Source of the DNA: Stegostoma tigrinum
Taxonomy: Eukaryota
DNA length: 64,000 nucleotides
Assembly (NCBI RefSeq): GCF_030684315.1
Contig: NC_081391.1
Location: forward strand, 20,916,629-20,980,628
Direction of reading: 5' to 3'
The translations under genes were made by a program, and so were the position numbers. Of this stretch, positions 1-62,554 are shown one piece after another (the first letter of the stretch is position 1; every line of letters starts with the position of its first letter). The notes beneath the pieces are model-generated. The model worked only from the letters and a program-made list of their open reading frames with translations. It was not told the DNA's origin and ran no database searches.

Positions 1-702
<702 letters not shown>

Positions 703-6654: not shown

Positions 6655-6850
6655 TGTTCCAATCACAGAATAACCATCCAGACCTGGCTCTCATCTCCAC
6701 TTCTGATCAGCTCTGCTTAACACACCCTCCCCCTCTCTCTCATTGGTGCCTGTATGCATGGGTCATTCCTGATTGGCCAGCAGCAACTGTCAGTCATCAT
6801 CAGTTCTGCCTCTCTGTGTGACTGCAGGATGGTCCCAGGACTATAAATAC
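6655..6850 (+). promoter_or_regulatory. Proximal promoter of copy 2: CCAAT, CACCC, two inverted CCAAT boxes and TATA
   Basis: CCAAT 6659, CACACCC 6721, ATTGG 6742 and 6772, TATAAAT 6842 (77 nt before the ATG). The block is near-identical in copies 3, 4, 5, 9 and 10, and in copy 8 apart from the TATA box. Confidence 0.7.
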
Positions 6851-6918
6851 AAGAGCCTGTGGGAGAGAGAGACTTAGTTCTAGAGTTTTCTTGGTGCTTG
6901 TGAGCAGGAATAGTGAAG

Positions 6919-9059
<2,141 letters not shown>

Positions 9060-10119: not shown

Positions 10120-10318
10120 CTGTTCCAATCACAGAATAACCATCCAGACCTGGCTCTCATCTCCACCTGTGATCAGCTCTGCTTAACACACCCTCCCCCT
10201 CTCTCTCATTGGTGCCTGCATCCATGGGTCATTCCTGATTGGCCAGCAGCATCTGTCAGTCATCATCAGTTCTGCCTCTCCATGGGTGAGTGCAGGATGG
10301 TCCCAGGAGTATAAATGC
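10120..10318 (+). promoter_or_regulatory. Proximal promoter of copy 3
   Basis: Same CCAAT/CACCC/ATTGG/ATTGG block; TATAAAT at 10310. Confidence 0.7.
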
Positions 10319-10383
10319 AGAGCTTGTGGAAGAGCAACTCACTTCTTGAGTGGTTTTGGTTTTAGTGAGTAGTAATTGTAAAG

Positions 10384-13286
<2,903 letters not shown>

Positions 13287-17449: not shown

Positions 17450-17647
17450 TGTTCCAATCACAGAATAACCATCCAGACCTGGCTCTCATCTCCACCTCTG
17501 ATCAGCTCTGCTTAACACACCCTCCCCCTCTCTCTCATTGGTGCCTGTATGCATGGGTGGTTCCTGATTGGCCACCAGCAACTGTCAGTCATCATCAGTT
17601 CTGCCTCTCTCTGTGTGACTGCAGCATGGTCCCAGGACTATAAATAC
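17450..17647 (+). promoter_or_regulatory. Proximal promoter of copy 4
   Basis: Same block; TATAAAT at 17639. Confidence 0.7.
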
Positions 17648-17715
17648 AAGAGCCTGTAGGAGAGAGAGACTTAGTTCTAGAGTTTTCTTGGTGCTTGTGA
17701 GCAGGAATAGTGAAG

Positions 17716-20122
<2,407 letters not shown>

Positions 20123-24262: not shown

Positions 24263-24460
24263 TGTTCCAATCACAGAATAACCATCCAGACCTGGCTCTC
24301 ATCTCCACCTCTGATCAGCTCTGCTTAACACACCCTCCCCCTCTCTCTCATTGGTGCCTGTATGCATGGGTGGTTCCTGATTGGCCACCAGCAACTGTCA
24401 GTCATCATCAGTTCTGCCTCTCTCTGTGTGACTGCAGCATGGTCCCAGGACTATAAATAC
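24263..24460 (+). promoter_or_regulatory. Proximal promoter of copy 5
   Basis: Same block; TATAAAT at 24452. Confidence 0.7.
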
Positions 24461-24528
24461 AAGAGCCTGTGGGAGAGAGAGACTTAGTTCTAGAGTTTTC
24501 TTGGTGCTTGTGAGCAGGAATAGTGAAG

Positions 24529-26800
24529 ATGGTTTCCCAAGTGTGTCAGAACTACCACAAGGACTGTGAGGATGCTGTTAACAAGCAGATCAACCTGGAG
24601 CTCTATTCCTCCTATGTTTACCTCTCCCTGGTGAGCTTTGTGGAATTGAAGCCTGTGCTATGATAGTGTTGACCTGTTTGGTTTTTATGCTGAGTTAATG
24701 AATTAGCTGTATCATGTATTATTTTCTGTGGCCCTTCCCCTGTTGCAATCTAGTGCAGGTCTTATCACTGACTCTCTGTTCAAAACTTGACCACTGTCTT
24801 CATGTCCAACTGGCTCCTGGATGTGGATGCCCAGCTTGCTGTCTCTGGACAATGTAACCCTTGGTGATTTTTTCATCTAACTCTGGAGGGATGATCTGGT
24901 CTTGGTCAATAATTAATTTTTGTAAAACTTTGGTTGTATTCCTTTTCTCAACAAAAGCTTTTCCTGACACAAATATACTCCTTTTTTAAAACCTTGCCCT
25001 ATTCACCGGACTGTCTTGTGCTCAAGATGTCAAGTTCCCTGAACTAAAAGAACAGCTGCTGCTAGACATTAAACACTAACAAAAATAGCTAGAAAAGCTC
25101 TACAGAGCTGGAAGAAATCCAAGCTCTGGGTCCATTGACCCTTTCTCAGAAGTGGCTTTGAGCTATGCAATGTGAGGAAAGGGGCACATTTTCAGACTAT
25201 GTATGTGTTTTTTTTTCTTTCTCTCTAACAAAGCAGTTAAAATTCTGTGGAGTGGGTGGTAGGACACTGCGGTTATTCAGGTGGGTGATAGTGATAATGA
25301 GACTGCTGACTGAGCTTTCTGGTTGTGTTAATGAACACATGTCCCTTCATTCAGTTGGACAGGGGCCGAACTGGTCTCCACCTCCTGAACAATAGTGTTT
25401 CTAACCTGCAGAGCAGGGATGTCTAATGGCTCTAGACAGCTCTCCCCTTCATCATCCATGGAAGGTGACTTCCTGCTTTGTCTGTTTTTTTAACCACTTA
25501 AATGTGGAATCCAGATGGTGCCCAGGTTAGTTCCAGAGTGAGGAGTGTCATTCATGAATTTCAGACAGTTTCCTTTTAGCCTCTCTCTTCCCACAGTTCT
25601 CTTACTTTGACCGGGATGATGTTGCCCTGCATCACTTTGCTGAGTTCTTCAAGGAGCAGTCCCATGAGGAACGGGAACACGCTGAGAAACTGATGGCATT
25701 CCAGAATAAACGTGGAGGTCGAGTCATCCTGCAGGACATCAAGGTTAGATTCTGAAGCCTTCTGTTTGCAGCTTTTTGTGAGCAGCTACAATCGACTGGT
25801 ATCTCCATCTATTTAGCTTTAGCCTTGAACAAATACTGTGTGAAGGGGAGGGTGTTCACCAAAATAGGATTCCTTTAGGTTGAAAGGAAATACTCTGCAC
25901 TTATGAGGGCAATTGAGAGGAACCAGAATAGTGAGTAGATATCAATGTGAATGACTCTCCTTCAGACAGAATGAGGTAACAAAAGCTAAGACAGGAAATT
26001 GTTGCACTGTGGAAAGTAGCAGTGTCCAGCCTTTCTGAATCTGGAAGATGTTTCTAACACCACAATAGTGAAGCCAGGAACTACTTCCATTGGTACCTAT
26101 TCTCTGCATGTGAATTCTGAGAATCTACATTAACAGTAGAATGTGTTTAGAAAATTTGTTATTCCCTCAGTACAAAATCTAGTTGTCTTCAAATTAAAGT
26201 TGGTTTGCAGTACCTCCCCTACAATGATGAGGGATAACTAACTGATCAGATGTAGACTAATGATACAACTGCCTGCTGAACTGTGCTTTCTGTTCCTGCT
26301 TCCCTCCCTCCAGAAGCCAGAGCAGGATGAGTGGGGCAGTGGTCTGGAGGCAATGCAGAGAGCTCTGCAGATGGAGAAGGATGTGAACCAGAGTCTGCTG
26401 GATCTGCACAAACTCGCCTCTGGCCACACTGACCCTCATGTGAGTTTGTAAACTTTCTTCTTGGAAGAAAGTGGTGTGTTTGTGCACTCTCTGGGTAAAA
26501 ATCCAATTACCTTCTCCCAGCCTCCTGCAGGCTGTTAAAACAAACTTACAAATGCATCACCTCAGTGGACCTCCACCTGGTTGTGATGGTCACATCTGTC
26601 ATGGGGGTCACTTTCAGACACTTTTGATCCTCTGGATTAATTTTCTCTTCCAGCTGTGTGACTTCCTGGAGAGGCAATACTTGGATGAGCAAGTGAAGAT
26701 GATCAAGAAGCTGGGAGATCACATCACCAACCTGAAGAGACTGGGAGCCCCTGACAATGGCATGGGAGAGTACCTGTTTGACAGGCTCACACTCGGCTGA
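24529..26800 (+). CDS. FTH1-like: Ferritin heavy/middle-subunit-like, copy 5, 173 aa
   Basis: Exons 24529-24630, 25597-25743, 26314-26439, 26654-26800. Open frame (exon 1 ends YLSL, protein ends RLTLG*) with ferroxidase ligands intact. TATA 24452, ATTAAA 26869. Confidence 0.93.
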
Positions 26801-28878: not shown

Positions 28879-30040
28879 TGACCAAACAGGTAGATGAGAG
28901 AAAACCGGTTGATGTGGTGTATATGGATTTCGGCAAGGCTTTCGATTAGGCTATTGTACAAAATACGGAGGAATGGGATTGTGGGAGATATAGCAGTTTG
29001 GATCAGAAATTGGCTTGCTGAAAGAAGACAGCGTGGTGGTTGATGGGAAATGTTCATCCTAGAGACCGGTTACTCGCGGTGTACCGCAAGGGTCGGTGCT
29101 GGGTCCACTGCTGTTTGTCGTTTTTATAAACGTAGAAGGATGGGTTAGTAAATTTGCAGACGACACGAAGGTCGGTGGAGATGTGGATAGTGACGAAGAA
29201 TGTTGTAGGTTACAGAGAGACGTAGATAAGTTGCAGAGCTGGGCTGAGAGGTGGCAAACGGAGGTTAATGCGGACAAGTGTGAGGTGTTGTACTTTGGTA
29301 GGAGGAACCGGAAGGCAAAGTACTGTAAGATTCTTGGTAGTGTAGATGAGCAGAGAGATCTCGGTGACCATGTACACAGATCCTTGAAAGTTGCCACCCA
29401 GGTTGACAGGGTTGTTAAGAAGGCATACAGTGTTTTAGCTTTTATGAATCCAGGGATCATGTTCCGGAACCAAGAGGTTATGCTGCAGCTGTACAAAACT
29501 CTGGTGCGGCCGCACTTGGAGCATTGCGTACAATTCTGGTCACCGCGTTATAAGAAGGATGTGGAAGTTTTGGAAAGGGTGCAGAGGAGGTTTACTAGGA
29601 TGTTGCCTGGTATGGAGGGAAAGTCTTACGAGGAAAGGCTGAGGGACTTGAGGCTGTTCTCGTTAGAGAGAAGAAGGTTGAGAGGTGACTTAATTGAGAC
29701 ATATAAGATAATCAAAGGGTTAGACAGGTTGGATAGGGAGAGCCTTTTCCCTAGGACGGAAACGGCGAGCACGAGGGGGCATAGCTTTAAATTGAGGGGT
29801 GAACGATATAGGACAGATGTCAGAGGTAGTTGCTTTACTCAGAGAATAGTAAGGGTATGGAACGCTTTGCCTACAACGGTCGTAGATTCACCAACTTTAA
29901 GTACATTTAAGTCGTCATTGGACAAGCATATGGACGTACGTGGAATAGTGTTGGTTAGATGAGCTTCAGATCGGTATGACAGGTCGGCACAACGTCAGGG
30001 CCGAAGGGCCTGTACTGTGCTGTAATGTTCTATGTTCTAT
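28879..30040 (+). mobile_element. 5'-truncated CR1-clade LINE (RT C-terminal part and 3' tail)
   Basis: ORF 29096-29962 contains [49 protein letters not shown] (CR1 ORF2). The 3' tail is tgttctatgttctat. TSD AACATA at 28873-28878 and 30041-30046; an empty site is visible in the paralogous spacer at ~50441. Confidence 0.92.
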
Positions 30041-30797: not shown

Positions 30798-31247
30798 TAA
30801 AAATCCTCTGAATGTCCACCCAGGAACTTTTGTAAATTTTGGGTTTGTATTCCTCTCAGTCTTAAATGTCCAACCCAGTCCTCTTACATCAGGATACCCT
30901 GATCCTGGACTCCCCCATCATTGGGAACATCCTTCCTGTCCTTGCCCCGTCTGATCCTGTCACAGTTTTCTATGACCCAGAGCCAATTTGCCACCTTTCT
31001 GTCTCATATCCCAGCACAACAGGCTGAGAAACTGACACCTCTTCTTCATTGACTTCCTCGTGCAGTTTGTCACAACCACCTTAATTTAGAAACAAAATGT
31101 TAAAGCTTTTTTCAATTGCCAGTCATCATCAGTTCTGCCCTTCTCTGTGTCAGTGCGGGATGGCCCCCAGGAGTATAAATACAGAGCTTGTCGGGGAGCA
31201 ACTCAGTTCTGGGGTGGTCTTGGTTTTAATGAACAAGGCTAGTGATG

Positions 31248-33653
31248 ATGGCCTCCCAAGCGTGTCAGAACTACCACAAGGACTGTGAGGATGCTGTGAA
31301 CAAGCAGATCAACCTGGAGCTTTATTCCTCCTATGTTTACCTCTCCATGGTGAGACTTGTGATCTTGAATGGTCTATTTCAGTGTTAGGGCTGTGATATG
31401 ATTGTACTGAGCCTTTAAGTGGCTTCTTGCTCAATGATTTAGTACTACCATATATCTTGTCTGTTGTCCTTCCTGGAATGAATCCAGTGAGTGCTCTTAA
31501 TGCTAATTCTGTAGCAATTTTAAGCTTGTCTTGTGTTGGAGCTGGCTCTTGTCTAGGAGTCCCCAGTATGTTGTAATTCTGGGCAGAGCACATTTTTGGT
31601 GCTGAGGGATGGCCTGGTTCTGCTTCTTAATTCAACTCCTCCTTCCATGTTGATATCAATGGCCCATTTATATTTGAAATCATTTACATCCTTGTGGAAG
31701 CTTGCATCAGTCCAAATCTAACTTTTTATATCTTGTCCTTTTAATGAAGCCTTTTTTTTAATAAACATCCTAACTGTGATTAACTACTGGAAATAAAAGA
31801 CTAAAATGAGCTGCTGGAAAAGCTTAGTGGGTCTGGTAGGATCTGTGGTGAGAAATCAGTTCCTGTTTTTGGTCCGGTGACCTTTCCTTCATGGTTTTTA
31901 GTTGCTACTTATGAGGAGCAGACTTTTTCCACTCCCAAGATGGATTATCTGGAACAAAAATCAGTCACTGTCTCTTGTGCAGATGAGGTGTTAGGACAGT
32001 GGGGCTAAATCAGATGAGTGATGTTGGTAATGTGAGGAGCTCAGATTTCAGCTTCTCTTGGTCAACATGCACATGTCCCTTCGTTCTGTTGGACAATGCC
32101 CTGATTGGCTTCCAGCACTGGGTAATAGTGTTTCTGACCTGCAGTGCAGGGATGTCTAATGCCTGTTGCCAGCTGTGACCGTCACCGTGCACTGTCTCAC
32201 CAAGTCACCGACCAGGGGTTGTAGCGGGTGCTACTTAATCTTTATTTCTAGATGTTTGAACAAATATCTGTCTAGTTTAGTTTATGGATGACCATAAATG
32301 TAAATACCTGTCTTCTTACTGTCCATCTAACTTCCATTTCGTGAGCAAAACCAAGCTGAATTGAGTGAAATTTACTTCCCATTTTGTCTGTTTGCAGTTC
32401 TCTCTCTTTGACCAGGATGATGTTGCCCTCCATCACTTTGCTGAGTTCTTCAAGGAGCAGTCCCATGAGGAGCGGGAACACGCTGAGAAACTGATGGCAT
32501 TCCAGAATAAACGTGGAGGCTGAGTCCTCCCGAGGACATCAAGGTTGGATTCTGAGAATGTCTGTCTGTTTGCAGCTTTTTGAGCAGCTACAATCGACTG
32601 GTATCTCCATCTATTTAGCTTCAGGATTGATCAAATACTATGTCAAGGGCAAGTTGTTCACCAAAACAGGATTTGTTTAGGGAAAAGGGAAATACTTTGC
32701 ATTTGTGACTCAATAGCAGAAGGCAATTCAGATGATCCAGGCTACTGGATGGTGAGCACATGTCCCTGTATGTGACTCTATATGGACAAGGTGAGGTAAC
32801 AAAAGGTAAGGCTGAGAACTTGCAGCTACAAAAAGCAGCAGCATCCAACCTCACTACATCCAGAAGAGGTTTGTAATGCCTTGGGACCATTCTGGTCACT
32901 ACATCAAACAGTAAAGCAAGGGATTACTTCCATTGCGACTGATTCTAGATACGACTTCTTTCAGAATTCACAGTAACAGTGGGATATGTTAACATTTCTT
33001 TATTCTCAGACCAGCATAAAATCTAGAGGGTTTTTGTATCCAAGTAAAATTTTTTGTCTGAATGTAACCCCTGGAAATGATGAGGGATAACTAACTGATC
33101 AGATGTAGACTAATGATACAACTGCCTGCTGAGCTGTGCTTTCTGTTCCTGCTTCCCTCCCTCCAGAAGCCAGAGCAGGATGAGTGGAGCAATGGTCTGG
33201 AGGCAATGCAGAGAGCTCTGCAGATGGAGAAGGATGTGAACCAGAGTCTGCTGGATCTGCACAAACTCGCATCTGGCCACACTGACCCTCATGTGAGTTT
33301 GTAAACTTTCTTCTTGGAAGAAAGTGGTGTGTTTGTGCACTCTCTGGGTAAACATCCAATTACCTTCTCCCAGCCTCCTGCAGGCTGTTAAAACAAACAT
33401 ACAAATGCATCACCTCAGTGGACCTCCACATGGTGGTGATGGTCACATCTGTCATGGGGGTCACTTTCAGACACTTTTGATCCTCTGGATTAATTTTCTC
33501 TTCCAGCTGTGTGACTTCCTGGAGAGGCAATACTTGGATGAGCAAGTGAAGATGATCAAGAAGCTGGGAGATCACATCACCAACCTGAAGAGACTGGGAG
33601 CCCCTGACAATGGCATGGGAGAGTACCTGTTTGACAGGCTCACACTCAGCTGA
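31248..33653 (+). pseudogene. Ferritin H/M-type pseudogene, copy 6
   Basis: Exons 31248-31349, 32398-32543, 33167-33292, 33507-33653. CGA>TGA at 32521-32523, then a 1-nt deletion (ctcccgaggac vs ctcctgcaggac). The upstream CCAAT/CACCC promoter block is deleted. Confidence 0.9.
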
Positions 33654-37651: not shown

Positions 37652-38101
37652 TAAAAATCCTCTGAATGTCCACCCAGGAACTTTTGTAAATTTTGGGTTT
37701 GTATTCCTCTCAGTCTTAAATGTCCAACCCAGTCCTCTTACATCAGGATACCCTGATCCTGGACTCCCCCATCATTGGGAACATCCTTCCTGTCCTTGCC
37801 CCGTCTGATCCTGTCACAGTTTTCTATGACCCAGAGCCAATTTGCCACCTTTCTGTCTCATATCCCAGCACAACAGGCTGAGAAACTGACACCTCTTCTT
37901 CATTGACTTCCTCGTGCAGTTTGTCACAACCACCTTAATTTAGAAACAAAATGTTAAAGCTTTTTTCAATTGCCAGTCATCATCAGTTCTGCCCTTCTCT
38001 GCGTCAGTGCGGGATGGCCCCCAGGAGTATAAATACAGAGCTTGTCGGGGAGCAACTCAGTTCTAGGGTGGTCTTGGTTTTAATGAACAAGGCTAGTGAT
38101 G

Positions 38102-40242
38102 ATGGCCTCCCAAGCGTGTCAGAACTACCACAAGGACTGTGAGGATGCTGTTAACAAACAGATCAACCTGGAGCTCTATTCCTCCTATGTTTACCTCTCC
38201 ATGGTGAGACTTGTGATCTTGAATGGTCTATTTCAGTGTTAGGGCTGTGATATGATTGTACTAATCATTTACATCCTTGTGGAAGCCTGCATCAGTCCAA
38301 ATCTAACTTTTTATATCTTGTCCTTTTAATGAAGCCTTTTTTTTAATAAGCATCCTAACTGTGATTAACTCCTGGAAATAAAAGACTAAAATGAGCTGCT
38401 GGAAAAGCTTAGTGGGTCTGGTAGGATCTGTGGTGAGAAATCAGTTCCTGTTTTTGGTCCGGTGACCTTTCCTTCATGGTTTTTAGTTGCTACTTATGAG
38501 GAGCAGACTTTTTCCACTCCCAAGATGGATTATCTGGAACAAAAATCAGTCACTGTCTCTTGTGCAGATGAGGTGTTAGGACAGTGGGGCTAAATCAGAT
38601 GAGTGATGTTGGTAATGTGAGGAGCTCAGATTTCAGCTTCTCTTGGTCAACATGCACATGCCCCTTCATTCAGTTGGACAATGCCCTGATTGGCTTCCAG
38701 CACTGGGTAATAGTGTTTCTGACCTGCAGTGCAGGGATGTCTAATGCCTGTTGCCAGCTGTGACCGTCACCGTGCACTGTCTCACCAAGTCACCTACCAG
38801 GGGTTGTAGCGGGTGCTACTTAATCTTTATTTCTAGATGTTTGAACAAATGTCTGTCTAGTTTAGTTTATGGATGACCATAAATGTAAATACCTGTCTTC
38901 TTACTGTCCATCTAACTTCCATTTCGTGAGCAAAACCAAGCTGAATTGAGTGAAATTTACTTCCCATTTTGTCTGTTTGCAGTTCTCTCTCTTTGACCGG
39001 GATGATGTTGCCCTCCATCACTTTGCTGAGTTCTTCAAGGAGCAGTCCCATGAGGAGCGGGAACACGCTGAGAAACTGATGGCATTCCAGAATAAACGTG
39101 GAGGCTGAGTCCTCCTGCAGGACATCAAGGTTGGATTCTGAGAATGTCTGTCTGTTTGCAGCTTTTTGAGCAGCTACAATCGACTGGTATCTCCATCTAT
39201 TTAGCTTCAGGATTGATCAAATACTATGTCAAGGGCAAGTTGTTCACCAAAACAGGATTTGTTTAGGGAAAAGGGAAATACTTTGCATTTGTGACTCAAT
39301 AGCAGAAGGCAATTCAGATGATCCAGGCTACTGGATGGTGAGCACATGTCCCTGTATGTGACTCTATATGGACAAGGTGAGGTAACAAAAGGTAAGGCTG
39401 AGAACTTGCAGCTACAAAAAGCAGCAGCATCCAACCTCACTACATCCAGAAGAGGTTTGTAATGCCTTGGGACCATTCTGGTCACTACATCAAACAGTAA
39501 AGCAAGGGATTACTTCCATTGCGACTGATTCTAGATACGACTTCTTTCAGAATTCACAGTAACAGTGGGATATGTTAACATTTCTTTATTCTCAGACCAG
39601 CATAAAATCTAGAGGGTTTTTGTATCCAAGTAAAATTTTTTGTCTGAATGTAACCCCTGGAAATGATGAGGGATAACTAACTGATCAGATGTAGACTAAT
39701 GATACAACTGCCTGCTGAGCTGTGCTTTCTGTTCCTGCTTCCCTCCCTCCAGAAGCCAGAGCAGGATGAGTGGGGCAATGGTCTGGAGGTGATGCAGAGA
39801 GCTCTGCAGATGGAGAAGGATGTGAACCAGAGTCTGCTGGATCTGCACAAACTTGCCTCTGACCACATAGACCCTCATGTGAGGTTTTATCCCTTTCCTG
39901 GAAGAAAGTGATCTGTTTGTGTACTTCCAGGGTGGGGAATCCAATTATTTTTCTATCTGCCTCCTGCAGGATGTTTAAACAAAACCTTGTGAAGGCATCA
40001 CTTGCATGCCCCTCCCCCATAGTGAGGTGATGGTCACTTCTGTCATGGGAGGTCACTGACATTTTTTGATCCTTGTTGGATTAATTTTGTCTTCCAGCTG
40101 TGATTTCATGGAGAGGCACTACTTGGATAAGCAAGTGAAGATGATCAAGAAGCTGGGAGATCACATCACCAACCTGAAGAGACTGGGAGCCCCTGACAAT
40201 GGCATGGGAGAGTACATGTTTGACAGGCTGCCACTCCGTTGA
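38102..40242 (+). pseudogene. Ferritin H/M-type pseudogene, copy 7
   Basis: Exons 38102-38203, 38983-39129, 39753-39878, 40098-40242. Same TGA as copy 6 at 39106-39108, plus a 2-nt deletion at the start of exon 4 giving TGA at 40101-40103 and several extra substitutions. Confidence 0.9.
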
Positions 40243-44420: not shown

Positions 44421-45941
44421 TAAAAATCCTCTGCATGTTCCCCCAGGAAATTCTCAGAGTTTGGAGAGGGGCTTTGTACTCCTCTCAGTGGGCACCTGTA
44501 CAAGGCACCTTTAATGTGGGAAAGCTGTTACACATCAGCAGAGACATGGTCCTTTACACAAGGTAGACCCAGTTCCACTGGCAAAGAAATGTTGACTGGG
44601 GATCCCCCCACTGCTGACCTTCACCCACCGTCACAGCCAACGATAGCACACGCCTATCTTCCACCTGGATGGCCGTTGGGAACTTGTTTTGCATTGCACT
44701 TTACCAGGACCCTCCCCTCGATCGTACCGTCCTGGGTGGCCCTGCCAGGAGGTGAAATCCTCTTCAGGTATCACTCTCAGAACCAACAGAACACTCGAGG
44801 CTCTCCATCACTGCGAGGTGACAATCCACAGGCAGGAGCTGGAGGCAGGGAGATGCTGCTCAGGTACAGACCCATCACAGAATCGGAGAATTGTTGTGGC
44901 ACAGCAGGCGGCCATTCGGTCCTTTGTGCCTGTACCTGTTCTGGTTGTTTTCTAATTCTGCCTGTAGAGATGTTACAAAATCTCTGGATCTGGTATGGAC
45001 TTGGACCAAGGCTTCCTGGTCCACAGCTAGGGACATTACCCCTGCATCACAATACCCTGGCTGCACTGGTTGTACAAACTTAGAATCATCGAAAAAAAAT
45101 TGTTGGATTCGGCCATTCAGCCCCCTCCAGACTGCTCTGCCATTCCATGTGATTGTGGCTGATTCCATAACTCAGTCCCATCTTCCCACTCTCTCTCCAT
45201 ACTCTTTGATCCCTTCAGCCCTCAAAGCTACACCCAACTGCTCCTGGAAAACATTCAAAGTTTTGGCCTCAAATGTTTTCTGTGGCACAGAATTCCACAG
45301 GCCCCCCACTCTCTCGGTGAAGAGATTTCTCCTCATCTCAGGCCTAAATGTGTACTTAGGCTGTGACCCCTGGTCCTGAACTTTTCCATCATCAGGAACA
45401 TCCTTCCTGTCTTTTCCACAGCTGACACTGTTACAATTTTCGATGACCCCGAGCCAATTTCCCACCTTTCTTTCCCAAATCCCAGCACAACAGGCTGAGA
45501 AACTGACACTCCCCTTCCTCAATGAGTCCCTTCTGCAGTTGATCACAACCACCATAATTTAAAAACAAAACGAGCAATCTTTTCTCAAACCATATTTACT
45601 TCTTTTAAAAAAGAACCAAATGACCTATGACCTGATTGAGTGGTGCAGAAGGTTTGAGATGCCGAATGGCCTCCTGCTGTTCCAATCACAGAATAACCAT
45701 CCAGACCTGGCTCTCATCTCCACCTCTGATCAGCTCTGCTTAACACACCCTCCCCCTCTCTCTCATTGGTGCCTCTATGCATGGGTGGCTCCTGATTGGC
45801 TAGCAGCAACTGTCAGTCATCATCAGTTCGGTCTCCCTCTGGGTGAGTGCCGGTTGTCTCAGGAGTAGAAACACAACAGCTTTGGGGATTGAGGCCTTTG
45901 TTCCAGAGTTGTCCTTGTGATTGTGAGCAGGAATAGTGAAG

Positions 45942-48329
<2,388 letters not shown>

Positions 48330-50429
48330 ATGGGGTCAATAATGTGTATGTTGTACATGGTGACATAATGCTAGTAACTCGGTTGTGCTGAGCAAATCAA
48401 AATAGTGTTCACCATGGAACTGAGTACTTTGCCTAATTTCACAGCTGCTTCTGGCTCTTGGTATTGCTGTTTGCACATCTGATCATTAAATCCTTTTCTG
48501 TTACTTCTGATTAACCTTTAATTCAATGCCTGCCCCAGTAGTTTGCTCCTCTTTTGTCGGTACGAATTCAGTCAGCAATCAATGTAGTGGAAATCCCACA
48601 AGTGTTCGGGTTTTTTTTCAGTACAACACTGTTTACTAGCCAAACAACTTTTCAGGACCAGCTTCTAGTCAATAGGCAGGGGACTGGTCTCAGTCAAGCT
48701 AAGTGTTGGGAACTGAACTGGAGCCCTGCCCTGTGCAATGTTCAGGTCTCATTGGAATAAGCAGCTGCAGGAAATCTCAGGTTTGGCTGCACCTGGGGGA
48801 AGAACTGTTCAGTGCCAGGACCTGAGACACATTATCATCTCCTGACAGATGTTGCCACACCTGTGACTTTTTCTAGCACTTGGAGTCTAATGATTTGAGC
48901 ATACATTCACTTTGCAAACAAGAATATAAAGTAAAAAAAATTTAGCCTGGAAGATGCACTGATCTCTTTAGCAATTGCTTATCTACAAAGGATACAAGTG
49001 GTTTTGCTCCCATTTCCTTTGCTCCTTTATCACTGGTGGAAGGAGTGAGTCTCATGGCTGCCTGTAAGAGAATGAGAAAACTTGTTTTCACTTGTCTCAG
49101 GCTCTCACGCGTGCACTCGCCAGAGAGAATGACCTGTTAGTCAAGGCAGCAGTGCCCATCTTGGAGCACGTGTGGCACAACTTCTCAGTGCTCTGCAACG
49201 TAAAGATTACATAGGCTAAGAACACCAGGTGAAAGTAAAGTTAGAACCCAAATACCACGAGGAGAAATCAGCAGTTCCAATCTTTAGCTCTTTATTTTCA
49301 ATGAAATCAGCTCTCCTGCTCTCAACTGACCTGCATGTGCCAGCACATGCACTGCTCTGTGCCTGCCTTGTTCCTGATGTTCAGGGGTGACAGTCTCCTC
49401 TATTAAAAGGATGTGGATGTCTCGGAGCTGACAGCATTTATTATCCATTTCAAATTGCCACAAGGCCAGGTCAGAGGTGCACACATCGCTGTGCTTGCAG
49501 GGTCATATGCAGGCCAGGCTCGGTAAGGATGGGTTTTTGACACTGAATTGAATGCTCCTCATTACCTTCTAAATTCCAGAGCGGTGTCAGATAGAATCAG
49601 GAGATCAGGCCAACACTCCAGAAACTTGATGGCCTCCAGCTCCAAGCAATGATTGTCAAGCTCATTATTAGGTTCTATTGCCAGAAGAGAGTTGTTCAGA
49701 CAGAATCAGGTCAACGGGTATCGGTCCAACACGCCAGGAGCTTAAGAGCCTCCAGCTCAGAGCAGCTGCGAGATTCATTCTTTCCGCCACTGACACACAG
49801 GGACTACAATATGTGCCGTTTAACAAATGCTGTAGAAATCCACCAAATCTTCTTAGACAACACCTTCCAAAGCCCCCATTCATCTAGTGTTGGTGGATCA
49901 AAATGCTGCCATTGCCTCACCAGGAGCATTGGGGATCTGCCTCCACTAAATCAACAACAGTTCAAGAAGGCAAGCCACCACATTCGCGAATCTAATGTTA
50001 GGCCTGATCTCGGACCAGTTCAAATATCTCAGCGTGGAGGTTCTTTTGTTCTAGTTCAAACATATCTGGAGTGCACAGTTCGAGCAGGTTGGACGCAAAG
50101 ATCGTTATGAACAGAATTTCTGGAATGCCCCCGGACAGAAAGTTAATTGGTTACGATGATAATACTTTGCCCAAGCCCCTCTGTGTAGAAGTGTAAAGGA
50201 CGTCTGTGCTTCAAGTTTCAAAGTGGATTAATGCATTTGACAGGGTACATAGAGAGATCCTGCTTCTTTTCAATCCTCATCTAGGACTAAGAGTGGGGAA
50301 TATGATTACAATCCTCGCATTAGAAGTAAATCATCTATGATAAAGCCAAAAACAGCTTCGTTTTGGAAAGGATAATATGTGAATCAGCAGATACATTTTT
50401 ATTTGGTCAGATTTGATGTTGCCAATTGC

Positions 50430-51714: not shown

Positions 51715-51911
51715 GTTCCAATCACAGAATAACCATCCAGACCAGATTATGATCTCCACCTGTGATCAGCTCTGCTTAACACACCCACCCCCTCTCTCTC
51801 ATTGGTGCCTGTATGCATGGGTGGTTCCTGATTGGCTAGCAGCAATTGTCAGTCATCATCAGTTCTGCCTCTCCATGGGTGAGTGCAGGATGGTCCCAGG
51901 ACTATAAATAC
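51715..51911 (+). promoter_or_regulatory. Proximal promoter of copy 9
   Basis: Same block; TATAAAT at 51903. The 5' UTR is shortened by a small deletion. Confidence 0.7.
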
Positions 51912-51957
51912 AGAGCTTGTGGAAGAGCAACTCACTTCTTGAGTGGGAATAGTGAAG

Positions 51958-54913
51958 ATGGCCTCCCAAGTATGTCAGAACTACCACAAGGACTGTGAGG
52001 ATGCTGTTAACAAGCAAATCAACCTGGAGCTCTATTCCTCTTATGTTTACCTCTCCATGGTGAGCCTTGTGACATTGAAGACCTGACCTCAAGTTGAAGC
52101 CTGTGATATATGTGCATTGACTCTCTTAGGTTTATTTTCTTGCCTAGTTTAATGATTTAGTTGTAGCATGTGTTTTGGTCTGTGGCCCTTCCCTGACTGA
52201 ATCCCAGTGAAATGGTTCACACTGACTCTGTTGGAAACTTGAAGTTTGTCTTGTATTGCAACTGACTCCTGGGTGACAATGGCCACTTTGTTATCTCTGG
52301 ACAATGTACTCCTTAGTGACTTTTCTCCTTCCTCTGAAGGGATGAGCTGATGTTGCTGATAAACCTATATTTTCCTTAAATTTGGTTGCAATTTTCTTTT
52401 AAAGAGAAGATTTCCCTGGTGAATTTTTCTATGCAAAATGTACTTGCACTCTTAAAACTTTGCCCCATTCACCAGGCTGCCGTCTGATTTGGCCCTAAAT
52501 GAGTTCGTTCTTTTCTGAAAGAAAAGCAACTGCTGGAAATTAGAAACAGCAACAAAAACAGCTGGAATAGCTTTACAGATCTGGCAGGATTTAGAGAAAT
52601 CAGTTCATGTTTTGGGTCCAGTGACTCTTCCTCAGAAGTCATCCTCCTCCTAGCTATTCAGTAGGAGGAAAGACAAGTGTGGCATGTTTTCACACTCCAA
52701 ATGTGAATTACAGGAGGAAAAAAAACCAGTTAGAACTCAGTGCTGAGTAGATGGTAGGACAGAGTGGGGTTATTCAGGTGGGTGATGTTTGTAATGCTGG
52801 CGCTCACTGCGATTCATGGCTCTGTCCATCCACGTGCTCTTTCTTACAGTGCTGTGTCCTTGATCGGCTGGCTGTGTGTCCTCTCTTTCTTCTATCTTCA
52901 ATGGGAGAAGACCTTCTGCCTGTCTATCATGTTCCAGTAATTAAATGTCCAGTTCTGGTTGCCATACTAATAAAAGGATGTGAATGCTTTGGAAGGGGGT
53001 GCAGAGGAGGTTCACCAGGATGTTGCCTGGTATGGAGGGTGTGAGCTAGGAAGACAGGTTGAGTAGATGAGCATTATTTTCATTAGAAGGTGGCAGATTT
53101 GGGGGTGGGGTCCTGATTGAGCTCCTCAAATTCATGAGGGGTGTAGACAAGGTGGATAGCAAGAAGCTTTTTCCTTGAGTGGGGAACTCAATTACTAGGG
53201 GTCATGAGCTCAAAAGTAAGAGCAGGGAAGTTTTTTTTTTCAGGGAAGATTGGGTGAGATTCCTTTCAGTGTGGAAACAGGCCCTTTAGCTCAGTGCACA
53301 CTGGCCCTTGAAGCATCCCACCCAGACCCATTCCCCTATAACCCCCATACCTTGGAATGCGACGGGCAATTTATCATGTGGATATGTTTGGAAAGCTCTT
53401 TACGCAGAGGTTGGAGGGTGCCTGGCACACATTGCCTGTGGAAGTGGTAGATGCAGTCACACTAGTGTCTTAAGATCTATCTGGACAGGTACATGGATGG
53501 GCAGGGAGCAAAGGGATAGAGACCCTATGAAAATAGATGACCAATTTGAGACCAGATGTCGCTCGGTGCAGCCTTGGAGGGTCAAAGAGCCTGTTCCTGT
53601 GCTGCAGCTTTTTTGTCCTTAAATGTGGAATCAAGATGGTGACTGGGTTAGTTTCTGGTTGAGGAGTGCCATTGAATTTCAGATACACTTCCCCTTCCTG
53701 CCTGTTTCTTCCCCCACAGTTCTCTTACTTTGACCGGGATGATGTTGCCCTGCGTCACTTTGCTGAGTTCTTCAAGGAGCAGTCCCATGAGGAGCGAGAA
53801 CATGGAGAGAAGCTGATCACATTCCAGAATAAACGTGGAGGTCGTGTCCTTCTGCAGGACATCAAGGTTGGATTCAAAATTTTTTCAGCTCAATACAATG
53901 GACTGATATCTCAATATGATCAGGTTCAGGATTAGACAAATACTGTGTGAATGGGAGGTTGCTCACCACAATAAGATTCCCTTCACTAAAAAGAAACACT
54001 TTTGCACTTGTGATTGAACAATAGTTGGCAATTGTGATAATCCAGTATTCTGGATGGTGAGCAAATATCGGTGTCTGCTGCAGCTTTGGACAAGATGAGG
54101 TGTCAAAAGGGAAAACAGGTCTTTCAGGTGCTGAATTCATCAGAATGAAGCCTTTATACATCTAGAAGATGTTTCTGATGCCTTGAGATCACTCTGATCA
54201 CAGCCTAGCAGGATCTGTTTAGAAATGTCCCCTTCAAGAACAGTACCAAATACAGCATGTGTTTTACCAAGGTCAAGTTGGCCTGTAGTACCTCCTCTAC
54301 AATGATGAGGGATAACTAACTGATCAGATGTAGACTAATGATACAACTGCCTGCTGAGCTGTGCTTTCTGTTCCTGCTTCCCTCCCCGCAGAAGCCAGAG
54401 CAGGATGAGTGGGGCAGTGGCCTGGAGGCAATGCAGAGAGCTCTGCAGATGGAGAAGGATGTGAACCAGAGTCTGCTGGATCTGCACAAACTGGCCTCTG
54501 GCCACACGGACCCTCATGTGAGTGTGGTGTATTTAAAATCTGGGTTTTTGAATAAAAACAGGGATCAGACACTTGGTCCTTTTTGTTCGCCACAAGATCT
54601 CATTTGACATTGTGGAGGGTTTTCTTGGGTTGTACCAAGATCCTCCTGTTTCTAAAACTGAGCACTTTCTCGTGTGTATTTGGCAATCTCCATGACATCA
54701 CTTCACTGTTCGGTCTCCCAATCTGCATTTGGTCAGATTTAACCAGTTCCCCTCTTTGCTTTCCAGCTGTGTGACTTCCTGGAGAGGCACTACTTGGATG
54801 AGCAAGTGAAGATGATCAAGAAGCTGGGAGATCACATCACCAACCTGAAGAGACTGGGAGCCCCTGACAATGGCATGGGAGAGTACCTGTTTGACAGGCT
54901 CTCACTCAGCTGA
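51958..54913 (+). CDS. FTH1-like: Ferritin heavy/middle-subunit-like, copy 9, 173 aa
   Basis: Exons 51958-52059, 53720-53866, 54392-54517, 54767-54913. Open frame ([14 protein letters not shown]). TATA 51903, ATTAAA 54986. Introns closely match copy 3. Confidence 0.93.
52940..53615 (+). mobile_element. CR1 3' fragment in intron 1 of copy 9 (shared with copy 3)
   Basis: Paralogue of 11340-11990 at the same intronic position. Confidence 0.7.
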
Positions 54914-56090
54914 ATGGGGTCAATACCTATATCTGTTGTACATGGTGACCTCATTCTACTAAATGACTAGTTGTGCTCTGAGCAAATTAAAATAGTGTTC
55001 ACCATGGAACTGAGTACAGTGTTTTATTTTCATAGCTTCTGGTTCTTGGAGCTCTGTGTTTTCATGTCTGATCATCAATCCTTTGTTCTTTGTGACAACC
55101 TTTGATTCAATGCCTGCCCCAGTAACTTGCTCAGTGTTTGATTCTGCTGTGTCTGGGGATTGAGTGGGCAATCCTTTTTATTGGAAATTCCATAACTGGT
55201 AAGGTTGTTGACAGATAAATCAGCATTACTGACATGTACTTGCAGGACCAGCTTCTAATCAATACACTGACTGAAATCAGTCCTTTGCCTGAAGGGTAGG
55301 CACTGATCCAATGCACTGCCCTTGGCCATGTGTTTGGGTCTCTTTTTAAATAAGCAGATTCTGGAAACCAGGAACACAACCTGCTGGGAAATCTCAGGTT
55401 TGGCAGCATTGGGAGGGAGAAGGGTTGAACAGAACCTGGCCATGAGACACGTGATCATCTCTTGATTTGATGTTGCGTTGCCTGACAGTGAGGTGTTTTC
55501 CAGCAATTTGTTGTAATGCCTCGATGTTACTGATTTTAGTAGATTGTACAATTCCTCCTTTTAAAGAGTAATATACACTGCTTTTCTGCAGGTTTTTCCT
55601 CTTGATAAGGAATTGCTTATGTCACTGTTCCCAGAGCTCGGGAATTAGTTTCTTCGGTATTTCCTTTTTATACAGGTAGGAGAAAGAAAAATCTACCTTG
55701 TCTCAGAATGCTAATGCCTGGGAACTGCCTTGGGAATGAAGCAGTGCCCACCTTGTTCCCTGTGTGATAATTTCTATTATTACCCTGCAAAGAGGTGACA
55801 AATACTGCAGATGCCTGGTAGAAAATCAAGCTAAGATACAAATACCATGTACAGAAATCAGCAGTTCCAATTTTTACCTTTGTGTTCAATTTTCAAGCAG
55901 ATCAGCTCTCCTGCTGTCGACTGGCTGACCTGTGACTCCACACAGTGCACCGGGGTGGCCTGATCACTGTCAATCAGCCCTGAATTACAATGTCAGAGAT
56001 AATGGGAACTGCAGATGCTGGAGATTCCAAGATGATAAAATGTGAGGCTGGATGAACACAGCAGGCCAAGCAGCATCTCAGGAGCACAAA

Positions 56091-56126
56091 AGCTGACGTT
56101 TCGGGCCTAGACCCTTCATCAGAGAG
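56091..56126 (-). ncRNA. Mirror-image minimal hammerhead ribozyme motif in the left pseudo-LTR
   Basis: The reverse complement of gacgtttcgggcctagacccttcatcag (56095-56122) gives the same core as 56817-56844. Confidence 0.6.
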
Positions 56127-56812
56127 GGGGATGGGGGGAGGGAACTGGAATAAATAGGGAGAGAGGGGGAGGGGGACCGAAGATGGAGAGCAAAGAAGAT
56201 AGGTGGAGAGGGTGTAGGTGGGGAGGTAGGGAGGGGATAGGTCAGTCCAGGGAAGACGGACAGGTCAAGGAGGTGGGATGAGGTTAGTAGGTAGCTGGGG
56301 GTGCGGCTGGGGGTGGGAGGAAGGGATGGGTGAGAGGAAGAACCGGTTAGGGAGGCAGAGACAGGTTGGACTGGTTTTGGGATGCAGTGGGTGGGGGGGA
56401 AGAGCTGGGCTGGTTGTGTGGTGCAGTGGGGGGAGGGGATGAACTGGGCTGGTTTAGGGATGCAGTGGGGGAAGGGGAGATTTTGAAACTGGTGAAGTCC
56501 ACATTGATACCGTATGGCTGCAGGGTTCCCAGGCGGAATATGAGTTGCTGTTCCTGCAACCTTCGGGTGGCATCATTGTGGCAGTGCAGGAGGCCCATGA
56601 TGGACATGTCATCAAGAGAATGGGAGGGGGAGTGGAAATGGTTTGCGACTGGGAGGTGCAGTTGTTTGTTGCGAACTGAGCGGAGGTGTTCTGCAAAGCG
56701 GTCCCCAAGCCTCCTCCCCACCTACACCCTCTCCACCTATCTTCTTTGCTCTCCATCTTCGGTCCGCCTCCCCCTCTCTCCCTATTTATTCCAGTTCCCT
56801 CCCCCCATCCCC

Positions 56813-56848
56813 CTCTCTGATGAAGGGTCTAGGCCCGAAACGTCAGCT
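56813..56848 (+). ncRNA. Minimal hammerhead ribozyme motif in the Penelope pseudo-LTR
   Basis: CTGATGA (56817-56823), aGGG-tctagg-CCC (stem II), GAAA (56837-56840), CGTC^ag. This matches the CUGANGA/GAAA core with a palindromic stem III, as known in PLE hammerheads. Confidence 0.6.
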
Positions 56849-57989
56849 TTTGTGCTCCTGAGATGCTGCTTGGCCTGCTGTGTTCATCCAGCCTCACATT
56901 TTATCATCCTGAATTACAATGTGACTGGTTTGTGTAAGGGCTTTAACAGGATCAGGCTATCACTGACAGGCAGCATTTATTATCCATCTCTGATTACATT
57001 ATCCATCTCTGATTACCCCCCCCCCCCAGCCCATGAGTAATTCAAATTAAAACCCTTTGCTGTGGGGTTACACATAGGCCAGATCAGGTAAGGATGGCAG
57101 TTTCTTACAAACAAGGACATTAGTGAACCAGAAGAGGCTTGGTTGGACCCTGTCTTCTGGAATGAGAATGTTGTGCGTGAAATTCAGTGATGTCAGACAG
57201 ACTCAGGATAACAGGTAGCAGTCTAACACTCCAGAATGTTGACAGCCTCCATCAAACGAGTAGCCACTCTCGTCAATCCTTCCACCACTGACATACGCGG
57301 AGACTGCAATATATACCATCTACCAAAGCTCCTTAGACAACTTCTTAAAACCACAACTACTTTCCATCGGACAAGGGCTGCAGATATGTAGGAACACCAC
57401 GCATCTCCACATTCTACACCAAGCCACCGATCACCCGGCGTTGGAATCGTAACCCCACGTTCCCTCCCTAACAGCAGTATGGATTTGCCTACACCAAATG
57501 GGCTACAGTAATGCAAGAAGGCAAATCACCACATTCTCGAAACTAATGTTGGCCCTGATCTCTGAGGGGTTCAAATACCTCTGGATGGAGAGGTTTTGGT
57601 GAAATTGTCAAGTTCCTGTTCAACCACAGCCGGAGTGCACAGTTCTGGCAGGTTCGACCCAAAGATGGTTATGCACAGAATTTCTGGAAGTAACCTGGAC
57701 AGAGAGATGGTTAATTCATGATAATGGCTTGTCCAGTCCGTCTGTGTAGAAGGTTAAGGGATGGCTGTAATTGATATTTTTCGGAGGATTAATGGATTTG
57801 ACAGGGTAGAGAGGAAAGAACCCATTTCTTCTCAATGATCATCTCGGACTGTGCGTAGAATGGGATGACAATCTTCACATGAGAACTACATCATCCAGGA
57901 CCATGTCAAAAACAGTTACTTTGTGGAAAGGACAATATCTGCACGCACAGATATTTACTGCACAAGGTTTGATGTTGCCAATCACTTTC

Positions 57990-58780
57990 CAATTTCAAGA
58001 CATAAAAAAAGTGAGTAATGCATTTTCGTAGAAGAAACACAGAAAGACAAAACAGGCTCGATGTTACAAATCTGATGTGAGTACAGGAGCTCAGAGACTT
58101 TCGGTTTCAAGTATGTGATTATCTGAAAGTGATCAGGCAGGATGAAACTGTTATTAATGGAGATTTAGCCACTTATGTGAACCTTGTGTTTTCAAATTGA
58201 GGCATCGAGTATAAAAGCAACGAATTGATGTTACACCTCTACAAATCATTGGTTAGACCACCTTTCCATTATGTACTCAGTTCTGGGCGTGACATTCAAG
58301 GCAGGACATGAAAAACCTCAAAAGTGTTCAAAGGAGATTTATTAGAATGACCCCAGGAGTGAGGAATTTTAGATACACGGAAAGATGAAGGAAAATGGGG
58401 TAAATCTCCTTGCAGGTGACCTTATTGAGAGGTGACCTTGTTGACGTGATCAAAACTATGAACAATTTTGATAGAGTAAACACGATATTCTGATTTCAGC
58501 AGTTGACTTGTCAGTGACGAGGGGTCACAGTTTGTCAGTAGGGGAGATCAGAGTGAAATGGGAAGAAACCTCTTAACTCAGAAAGTTGTTCGGATTTGGA
58601 ATGTGCTGCCTGGGAGAGTGACGGAGGTCGATTCCATGGTTGGTTTCAGAACAAGAGTTGGATATGTCCTTGGAAGTGACGAATTTAGAGAGTGACAGAG
58701 ATAGGGCTGGAAAGTGGGACTAATCAGGTAGCTCGTTCAGAAGCTATTACAGGAACGGTGGGCTGAATGGCCTCCTGTTG
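57990..58780 (+). mobile_element. Old decayed CR1 LINE 3' end (spacer copy)
   Basis: Near-identical to 15430-16220. Confidence 0.65.
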
Positions 58781-60009
58781 TGAAAAACGCTCTGAATTTC
58801 CACTCAGGAAATTCTGAGAGTTTGGGGACGGGGTTTGAATTCCACCTGTAGAAGGCAACTTCCATGTGGGAAAGCTGTTACACGCCAGCAGAGACATGGT
58901 CCTTTACACAAGGTAGACCCAGTTCCACTGGCAAAGAAATGTTGACTGGGGATCCCCCCACTGCTGGCCAACACCCACTGTCACAGCCAACGATCGCACA
59001 CACCTATCTTCCACCTGGATGGCCGTTGGGAACTTGTTTTGCATTGCACTTTATCAGGACCCTCCCCTCGATCGTACCATCCTGGGTGGCGCTGCCAGGA
59101 GGTGAAATCTTCTTCAGGTATCACTCTGAGAACCAACAGAACACTCGAGGCTCTCCATCACTGCGAGGTGACAATCCACAGGCAGGAGCTGGAGGCAGGG
59201 AGATTCTGCTCAGGTACAGACCCACCACAGAATCGGAGAATTGTTATGGCACAGCAGGAGGCCATTCGGTCCTTTGTGCCTGTACCTGTTCTGGTTGTTT
59301 TCTAAATCTGCCTGTAGAGATGATTTAAGATCTCTGGATCTGGTAGGAACTTGTACCAAGGCCTCCTGGTCCACAGCTAGGGACATTACCCCTTCACCAC
59401 AAGACCCTGGCTGCGCTGGTTGCACAAACGTGGAATCATAGAAAATAAATGTTGAGTCGGCCATTCATCCCTTCCAGCCTGCTCTGCCATTCCATGTGAT
59501 TGTGGCTGATTCCATAACTCAGCACCATATTCTCACCATCTCTGCATTCCCTTTTGATCCAGCCCTCAAAGCTCTCCCCAATTCCTGTTTTGGCTTCAAT
59601 CGTTTTCTGTGGCAGAGAATTCCACAGGTTCCACCACTTCGCCCCCCGAGGTGAAGAGATTTCTCCTCACCTCAGTTCTAAATGTATCCTTAGACTGCAA
59701 ACCCTGGTCCTGAACTCCCCCATAATCAGGAACATCCTTCCTGTCTTTTCCACAGCTGACACTGTTATAATTTTCTATGACCCAGAGACAATTTCCCAAC
59801 TTTCTTTCCCAAATCCCAGCACAACAAGCTGAGAAACTGATGCCCCTCTTCCTCATTGAATCCCTCGTGCAGTTGCTCACAACCACCTTAATTAAAAAAA
59901 ATGTGAAAACTTTTCTCAAACCAAATTGACTTCTTTTAGAAAAGAACCAAATGACCTATGACCTGAGTGAGTGGTGCAGCAGATTTGAGATGCCGAATGG
60001 CCTCCTGCT

Positions 60010-60206
60010 GTTCCAATCACACAATAACCATCCAGACCTGACTCTCATCTCCACCTCTGATCAGCTCTGCTTAACACACCCTCCCCCTCTCTCTCATTGG
60101 TGCCTGTATGCAGGGGTGGTTCCTGATTGGCCAGCAGCAACTGTCAGTCATCATCAGTTCTGCCTCTCTCTGTGTGACTGCAGGATGGTCCCAGGACTAT
60201 AAATAC
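60010..60206 (+). promoter_or_regulatory. Proximal promoter of copy 10
   Basis: Same block; TATAAAT at 60198. Confidence 0.7.
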
Positions 60207-60274
60207 AAGAGCCTGTGGGAGAGAGAGACTTAGTTCTAGAGTTTTCTTGGTGCTTGTGAGCAGGAATAGTGAAG

Positions 60275-62554
<2,280 letters not shown>

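Follow-up and report, generated by a model that had tools for sequence, protein, structure and literature searches.

The iron-responsive element (IRE) counts as a defining feature of the mRNAs of vertebrate cytosolic ferritins, and in salmon the H chain and the M chains (M1-M3) all carry one, according to the accessible text of the source (PMC4117605). Repression of an IRE-bearing ferritin mRNA lasts until iron has reached a high level, and in human L-ferritin the loss of this control leads to hyperferritinaemia-cataract syndrome (PMC11719527, sections available). Ferritins without the element have been described as well. Most sponge ferritins have an IRE and many atypical invertebrate ferritins lack it (PMC8395497), human FTMT is outside IRE/IRP regulation (PMC7760355), and the yolk ferritin of snails, a protein of reproductive tissue, is IRE-less beside IRE-bearing somatic ferritins (PMC10799875), as far as the accessible parts of these papers state.

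In sharks, ferritin genes have been found in large numbers. A preprint on the Greenland shark (10.1101/2024.09.09.611499) reports, in the portion accessible, 155 FTL-like and 179 FTH1-like copies, more than 85% of the ferritin copies appearing full length, and describes an ancient expansion with clusters syntenic with the great white shark, the largest of them expressed ovary-specifically; the words "IRE" and "iron" do not occur in its main text. The available text of a second Greenland shark preprint and of the catshark genome paper yielded no ferritin passage. Fish ovarian follicles are rich in ferritin transcripts, and amphibian eggs contain ferritin (PMC1488847, in part).

The window analyzed here, a stretch of 64,000 nucleotides (64 kb), contains ten ferritin genes arranged in tandem, head-to-tail and all on the + strand, with zebra shark proteins as their nearest relatives (Table 1). 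The protein of copy 9 is 100% identical to the partial Stegostoma tigrinum protein XP_059496416.1 over its 170 amino acids, and copies 4 and 7 each show 99.4% identity to other proteins of that species. Exon 1 is present in nine of the ten copies, copy 0 being truncated by the window start. Each gene has the four coding exons and three introns of animal cytosolic ferritins, with GT-AG introns in 9/9 copies. Intact 173-codon frames are found in six of the ten (copies 2, 3, 4, 7, 8, and 9) and the other four (0, 1, 5, and 6) are broken; among these is copy 1, which had been quoted as an example in the original prediction and turns out to be a pseudogene. Copy 7 combines an intact frame with changes in the TATA box and the poly(A) hexamer, and is possibly a silenced or weak copy. 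Blocks of 3-7 kb repeat through the window in a mosaic pattern with 89-95% identity, as would be expected from unequal crossing-over.

Table 1. Ferritin copies of the window and promoter features of copy 1; positions count from the first base of the window.
Feature	Position	Strand	TATA box	Predicted start	ATG	Remarks
Copy 0	1..702	+				starts in exon 2 at the window edge; small deletions in exons 2 and 3; frame broken
Copy 1	6919..9059	+	6842	6876	6919	pseudogene; in-frame TAG at codon 54 (7937-7939)
Copy 1, exons	6919-7020, 7880-8026, 8564-8689, 8913-9059	+				
Copy 1, inverted CCAAT boxes (two)	6742..6776 (6742, 6772)	+				
Copy 1, E-box CANNTG	6784-6789	+				in 9/9 copies; two inner bases variable
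Copy 1, 16-nt block	6791-6806	+				invariant in 9/9 copies
Copy 1, TATA box	6842..6848	+				
Copy 1, initiator match (YYANWYY)	6874..6880	+		6876		
Copy 1, predicted 5' UTR	6876..6918	+				43 nt; no IRE; no stable fold (z +0.80)
Copy 2	10310..13286	+	10310	10341	10384	173-codon frame intact; ferroxidase His62 changed to Arg
Copy 3	17639..20122	+	17639	17673	17716	intact
Copy 4	24452..26800	+	24452	24486	24529	intact
Copy 5	31174..33653	+	31174	31205	31248	pseudogene; TGA at codon 76 (32521-32523) and 1-nt deletion; CCAAT boxes lost
Copy 6	38028..40242	+	38028	38059	38102	pseudogene; TGA at codon 76 (39106-39108); 2-nt deletion at exon 4 start; CCAAT boxes lost
Copy 7	45866..48329	+			45942	frame intact; TATA mutated to TAGAAA; initiator match lacking; AATCAA in place of the poly(A) hexamer
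Copy 8	51903..54913	+	51903	51934	51958	intact; 24-nt predicted UTR
Copy 9	60198..62554	+	60198	60232	60275	intact; UTR identical to that of copy 1

As far as the sequence can tell, an IRE is absent from this ten-gene array. On the whole 64 kb, Rfam gave no match at the gathering score and 14 matches up to an E-value of 10, with no IRE family among them; a search up to E 10 of positions 6780-6960 alone, the 181 bases around the start of copy 1, returned no IRE either. Neither a match to the covariance model IRE_I (RF00037) of at least 34 bits nor any IRE match up to E 10 was obtained. The same search called IRE_I at 53.3 bits (E 1.5e-10) in the control contig L001, a fish ferritin transcript that is H-chain-like as judged from its N-terminus. 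A rule-based scan, with the variant loops of SIREs, recovered 200 of 200 planted hairpins as well as the element of the control contig. The scan looked for a bulged C, a five-pair stem and a CAGWG loop, following the criteria given in the accessible part of PMC8466369. No canonical-loop IRE with an unpaired C8 and the first lower-stem pair was found on the + strand of the 64 kb, and the four variant-loop matches, against 3.7 ± 1.9 in shuffled sequence, include none less than 1.2 kb upstream of an ATG.

Between the TATA box and the ATG, the word CAGTG is absent from all nine copies with exon 1, and no CAGUGH or CAGAGH loop on a 5-bp stem is found there in any of them. In copies 2, 5, 6, and 8 a CAGAG sits between the TATA box, which it closely follows, and the predicted start, and in copy 7 one lies within the UTR; none of these words has the C bulge and stem. 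The claim that the nine copies have no CAGTG loop or C-bulge hairpin is thus borne out both by Rfam, the check suggested with it, which found the control L001 and no IRE on the 64 kb, and by the rule-based scan, with controls working.

When the lower pair was waived, a bulged C with at least four of five upper-stem pairs was seen at 6 of the 248 CAGWG words on the + strand (shuffles, 3.8 ± 1.9). The next ATG lies 1.2-4.8 kb downstream of these six, and demanding the first lower-stem pair removes them all. The hairpin at 49745-49775, with a CAGAGC loop at 49758 and 5/5 stem pairs, was set aside as a chance structure, having no lower pair at the bulge and lying 2.2 kb upstream; in its homologues at 2123, 10056, and 41669 the stem is broken. 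A degenerate relic of an IRE in the UTR was likewise rejected: when the control IRE (L001:55-90) was aligned locally to the stretch from TATA to ATG of each of the nine copies, its scores stayed in the range of shuffles. P was 0.10-0.68 in eight of the nine copies and 0.028 in copy 8, at a place 5' of the predicted start, a value that falls short of significance when 18 tests are allowed for, and the best score across the window, 28, equals that of shuffles (27-29). A metagenome scan returned four ferritin loci, none of them shark-like (51-70% identity), with an IRE called in one of the four. On a ferritin contig from the metagenomes (L002, 10-40) there is a CAGTG loop with four of five stem pairs, no bulged C and no Rfam call.

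The promoters point to a start close to the coding sequence. In copy 1 the TATAAA at 6842 lies 77 nt before the ATG at 6919, as had been claimed, and the claimed range of 55-77 nt holds for the nine copies (77, 74, 77, 77, 74, 74, 76, 55, and 77 nt for copies 1-9, copy 7 being measured from its TAGAAA). Among the 24 TATAAA words on the + strand, an initiator follows at +28 to +35 in eight, which are all eight of the ferritin promoters with an intact TATA box, and in 0 of the other 16; the chance per site is about 0.07, and the copies, being related, represent about three independent types. The distance from the initiator A to the ATG is 43 nt in seven of the eight and 24 nt in copy 8, where 19 nt have been deleted, and the 43-nt spacing is kept despite UTR types that are just 59-85% alike. 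Transcription likely starts at this TATA-proximal initiator, giving a predicted leader of 24-43 nt. The UTR length of about 30-50 nt put forward in the original prediction agrees with the 43 nt of seven copies and is too long for the 24 nt of copy 8.

Upstream of the TATA box, two inverted CCAAT boxes are found in seven of nine copies and are missing in copies 5 and 6, both pseudogenes. A FIGLA-type site is one possible identity for the conserved E-box. In the promoter set read, nine promoters of one species, mean identity across copies is 0.82 for the promoter block, 0.69 for the UTR, 0.64 for the start of intron 1 and 0.96 for exon 1. Shuffled sequences fold as well as the UTRs (z -1.1 to +0.8), and a conserved alternative hairpin was rejected on a consensus energy of -0.42 kcal/mol over seven copies. 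A conserved RNA element would produce the opposite pattern to such a variable and unstructured UTR. In copies 5 and 6, homology to the other promoters starts exactly at the E-box (31113 and 37967), and both pseudogenes have an out-of-frame ATG 19 nt upstream.

The start at the initiator is a prediction, and the main start might lie elsewhere, with mRNAs that begin upstream, outside the window or with an element split by an intron, and that carry an IRE or a non-canonical IRP-binding structure. An AG with a tract of 61-83% pyrimidine is present within 130 nt of each ATG, a range that overlaps the low end of that of true acceptors (67-94%). Against such an arrangement, the TATA box and initiator occur together in 8/9 copies, and copies 5, 6, and 8 have no counterpart of the acceptor-like site found 11-18 nt upstream of the ATG. 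The intergenic DNA between neighbouring copies lies wholly in the window, and therefore an upstream exon or distal start located there cannot supply an intact canonical IRE; none is present in the intergenic or intronic DNA of the window. The upstream exon or distal start with an IRE that the original prediction named as its counter-case is thus, for an intact canonical element, not possible inside the window. We regard a hidden upstream element as the least probable of the readings weighed here.

Transcript data bear on the same question. Four sequencing runs out of 22 (X1, X2, X4, and X6; putative RNA) were compared with positions 57000-62900, which hold copy 9 and 3.3 kb upstream of it; stretches lacking coverage were given no weight, and read depth was not used for ranking genes. 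One contig each in X1, X4, and X6 bridges all three introns at about 96% identity to copy 9, and no splice joint among those listed for the four runs enters exon 1. The contigs of X1 and X4, which come from two studies with two organism codes, agree with the UTR over its final 19 nt, and their ends lie 28 nt (X1) and 22 nt (X4) upstream of the ATG; as a start cannot be read from contigs, these ends are a weak hint of a TATA-proximal one. The X6 contig starts inside the coding sequence, and X2 gave fragments only. All three spliced contigs have a longer C-terminus than the window copies and so derive from related paralogues, not from these copies. A second, more divergent ferritin contig in the same runs covers exon 2, and its loose ends are similar to the second elasmobranch clade introduced below.

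The proteins have features expected of cytosolic ferritins. With residues numbered as in the accessible text of PMC4117605, the ferroxidase residues E24, E58, E59, H62, E104, and Q138 are all present in five of the six intact copies (3, 4, 7, 8, and 9), copy 2 having R62; the nucleation residues E54 and E61 are present, position 141 is Met, and the protein has 173 amino acids. Near-identical proteins carry the ferritin domain PF00210, and the best solved-structure match of exon 2 is frog M ferritin (E 1e-22). The reading frame 5' of the ATG closes after five codons in 9/9 copies, so that neither a signal nor a transit peptide is expected and a cytosolic location is predicted. The six intact frames are under purifying selection, with a pN/pS of 0.25 over their 15 pairs.

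To place the array among ferritins, two quick maximum-likelihood trees of 69 and 41 rows were made, with SH-aLRT values alone as support and leaving out the four pseudogene copies (0, 1, 5, and 6) as well as gene models that are long or fused. In both trees the array copies fall in a shark-only clade (SH-aLRT 99) with members from Heptranchias, Pristiophorus, Heterodontus, Scyliorhinus, Mustelus, Carcharodon, Cetorhinus, and carpet sharks. The FTH1 orthologues of tetrapods, teleosts and cartilaginous fish, including skate and chimaera, form a separate clade (SH-aLRT 95-96) outside of which the array copies lie, and a further clade of shark and ray ferritins (SH-aLRT 95-97) stands apart from both. 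The array copies do not group with the frog or teleost M chains in these trees, whose deep branches lack resolution and which hold no mammalian FTL. By this placement the array belongs to a third ferritin clade, amplified across sharks, and its genes are not FTH1 orthologues; FTH1, taken as the reference in the original prediction, is not the appropriate one. The clade is large, with 127 member sequences in one 90%-identity cluster and 69 in another.

In Scyliorhinus canicula and Heterodontus, the second elasmobranch ferritin is on a sequence of equal length to that of the amplified-clade members, and in Heterodontus the two kinds have near-adjacent accessions. Equal lengths and near-adjacent accessions suggest linkage, and with it that the amplified clade arose by local duplication from the second elasmobranch ferritin locus. 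The proteins P0105, P0172, P0145, and P0157 are members of this second clade. It is a possible parent of the array and a candidate for an IRE-bearing somatic partner.

The array could also be mostly a decaying surplus of unequal crossing-over, its lack of an IRE a side effect with little physiological role. Four of ten copies are indeed broken, copy 7 is without the TATA consensus and the poly(A) hexamer, copy 2 has lost His62, and the duplication blocks are a mosaic. Such decay is at odds with the low pN/pS among intact copies, with promoter motifs more conserved than the adjoining UTR and intron, with a clade that spans Heptranchias to carpet sharks, and with the full-length state reported, in the text available, for most Greenland shark copies (10.1101/2024.09.09.611499); we consider it quite improbable.

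Taken together, we favour, at about two chances in three, the reading that these are third-clade, amplified shark ferritins without an IRE, with a TATA-proximal leader of 24-43 nt and IRP-free translation, which most likely serve as an ovarian or egg store. Since there is no IRE in the predicted 5' UTR or upstream in the window, repression by IRP1/2 is unlikely. The IREs of salmon H and M chains and of most sponge ferritins make the absence likely a derived state, and the introns kept by the genes argue against a loss by retrotransposition. A single DNA-level change at the 5' end, probably preceding the amplification, would have removed the IRE. The short capped leader would be beyond the reach of IRP1/2, so that translation would track the mRNA level, and output would be set by gene dosage and a tissue-specific, probably ovarian, promoter with its CCAAT boxes, E-box, 16-nt block and TATA box. 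Unequal crossing-over would meanwhile turn the copies over by birth and death. "Escape from iron-dependent control", as the array was first described, is apt for the IRE/IRP route, given the predicted UTRs and the upstream DNA of the window, and overstated as a broader claim. Government by copy number, proposed with it, is conjectural in an array where four of ten copies, the quoted one included, are broken.

The ovarian role is most likely by analogy with the expression seen in another species, the Greenland shark. A growing oocyte or follicle would build empty ferritin shells before iron arrives, at a time when an IRE-bearing mRNA would be repressed. The 3' UTRs are short, with the poly(A) hexamer, mostly ATTAAA, 66-73 nt past the stop codon. 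No CPE precedes this hexamer in 10/10 copies, and an oocyte-type 3' UTR is thus not evident. The word TGTACATG or TGTACATA, which we take to be Pumilio-site-like, is found about 21-24 nt past the stop (e.g., at 9080) in eight of ten copies.

The genes may instead encode general stress or antioxidant ferritins with broad somatic transcription, like fthl27 of the hadal snailfish, whose 14 copies are high in most tissues according to the accessible text of PMC10746142, and not an ovarian store. The spliced contigs of clade members, found in three of four runs, come from samples of unstated tissue, and expression beyond the ovary may therefore occur. Speaking against a somatic stress role are the ovary-specific expression of the largest Greenland shark cluster (10.1101/2024.09.09.611499, in the portion accessible) and the promoters themselves, which within 400 nt of the ATG have no ARE, AP-1 or HRE consensus in 9/9 copies and an MRE consensus in just 2/9. 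We hold this role to be unlikely.

A more specific form of the favoured reading is that sharks have a dedicated egg-provisioning ferritin, which arose when an ancestral gene lost its IRE, in a single event, and acquired an oocyte promoter, and which was then amplified and kept in at least a hundred copies across lineages. We advance this tentatively, as a possibility with the odds somewhat against it. If true, these genes would be a vertebrate cytosolic counterpart of snail yolk ferritin, loading very large eggs with iron independently of IRPs, and the unexplained expansion of shark ferritins could be read as maternal iron supply rather than in terms of longevity. As a natural, conserved and amplified group of intron-bearing ferritins without an IRE, they would show that this control can be dropped where programmed bulk synthesis is needed.

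Several other elements are located in the window. An inverted repeat pair at 56028-56226 and 56713-56911 (199 bp, 99% identity, spacer of about 490 bp) is likely a young non-autonomous DNA transposon or a fold-back element. An open frame of 299 codons at 29063-29962, with related pieces in other spacers, reads, we presume, as the C-terminal part of a CR1-type LINE reverse transcriptase. Rfam matches to the C/D-box family sR1 recur in intron 2 of six copies (e.g., 33073-33134); they score 20-31 bits where the gathering score is 45, and are probably due to chance and repeated with the duplication.

When the array is compared with known ferritins, the Greenland shark expansion is the nearest. Large tandem ferritin clusters are common to distant sharks, and great white shark proteins fall in the clade of the array; in contrast to the naming of the preprint (FTL, FTH1, in the text available), the array copies lie outside FTH1 in our trees. 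The array likely belongs to this ovary-expressed expansion, with an orthology to the preprint's cluster suggested by tree and not by synteny. The hadal snailfish offers another tandem amplification of a ferritin in a fish, and differs in that its 14 copies of fthl27 are recent and broadly expressed (PMC10746142, in part). Vertebrate M-type ferritins (frog M, teleost middle subunit) share with the array the four exons and the same ferroxidase and nucleation residues (E54, E61). Unlike salmon M1-M3, which have an IRE in the source as available (PMC4117605), the array copies are IRE-less, and their Met141, 173 amino acids and lack of grouping with M chains set them further apart.

Similar to FTMT, the array represents a vertebrate ferritin with an intact ferroxidase centre outside IRE/IRP control, by prediction in the case of the array. 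In contrast to FTMT, an intronless retrocopy without TATA or CCAAT boxes and with a mitochondrial targeting peptide (PMC7760355, in the sections accessible), the array genes have three introns, TATA and CCAAT boxes and no N-terminal extension, and are amplified in tandem. The yolk ferritin of Lymnaea and Biomphalaria resembles the array in having no IRE, as do the predicted UTRs here, and is unlike it in being secreted, with a signal peptide and a 42-aa insert (PMC10799875, in part) that the shark proteins lack; the two are of separate origin and their likeness is one of functional analogy only. The shark ferritin expansion and IRE-less ferritins such as FTMT and snail yolk ferritin are therefore each already known, and to that extent the novelty first seen in the locus is reduced. 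Their combination is unreported in the literature searched, of incomplete coverage, in which no account of IRE-less shark ferritins was found. What appears to be new is a vertebrate ferritin that is intron-bearing and predicted to be cytosolic, keeps its ferroxidase centre, and is amplified many-fold without an IRE.
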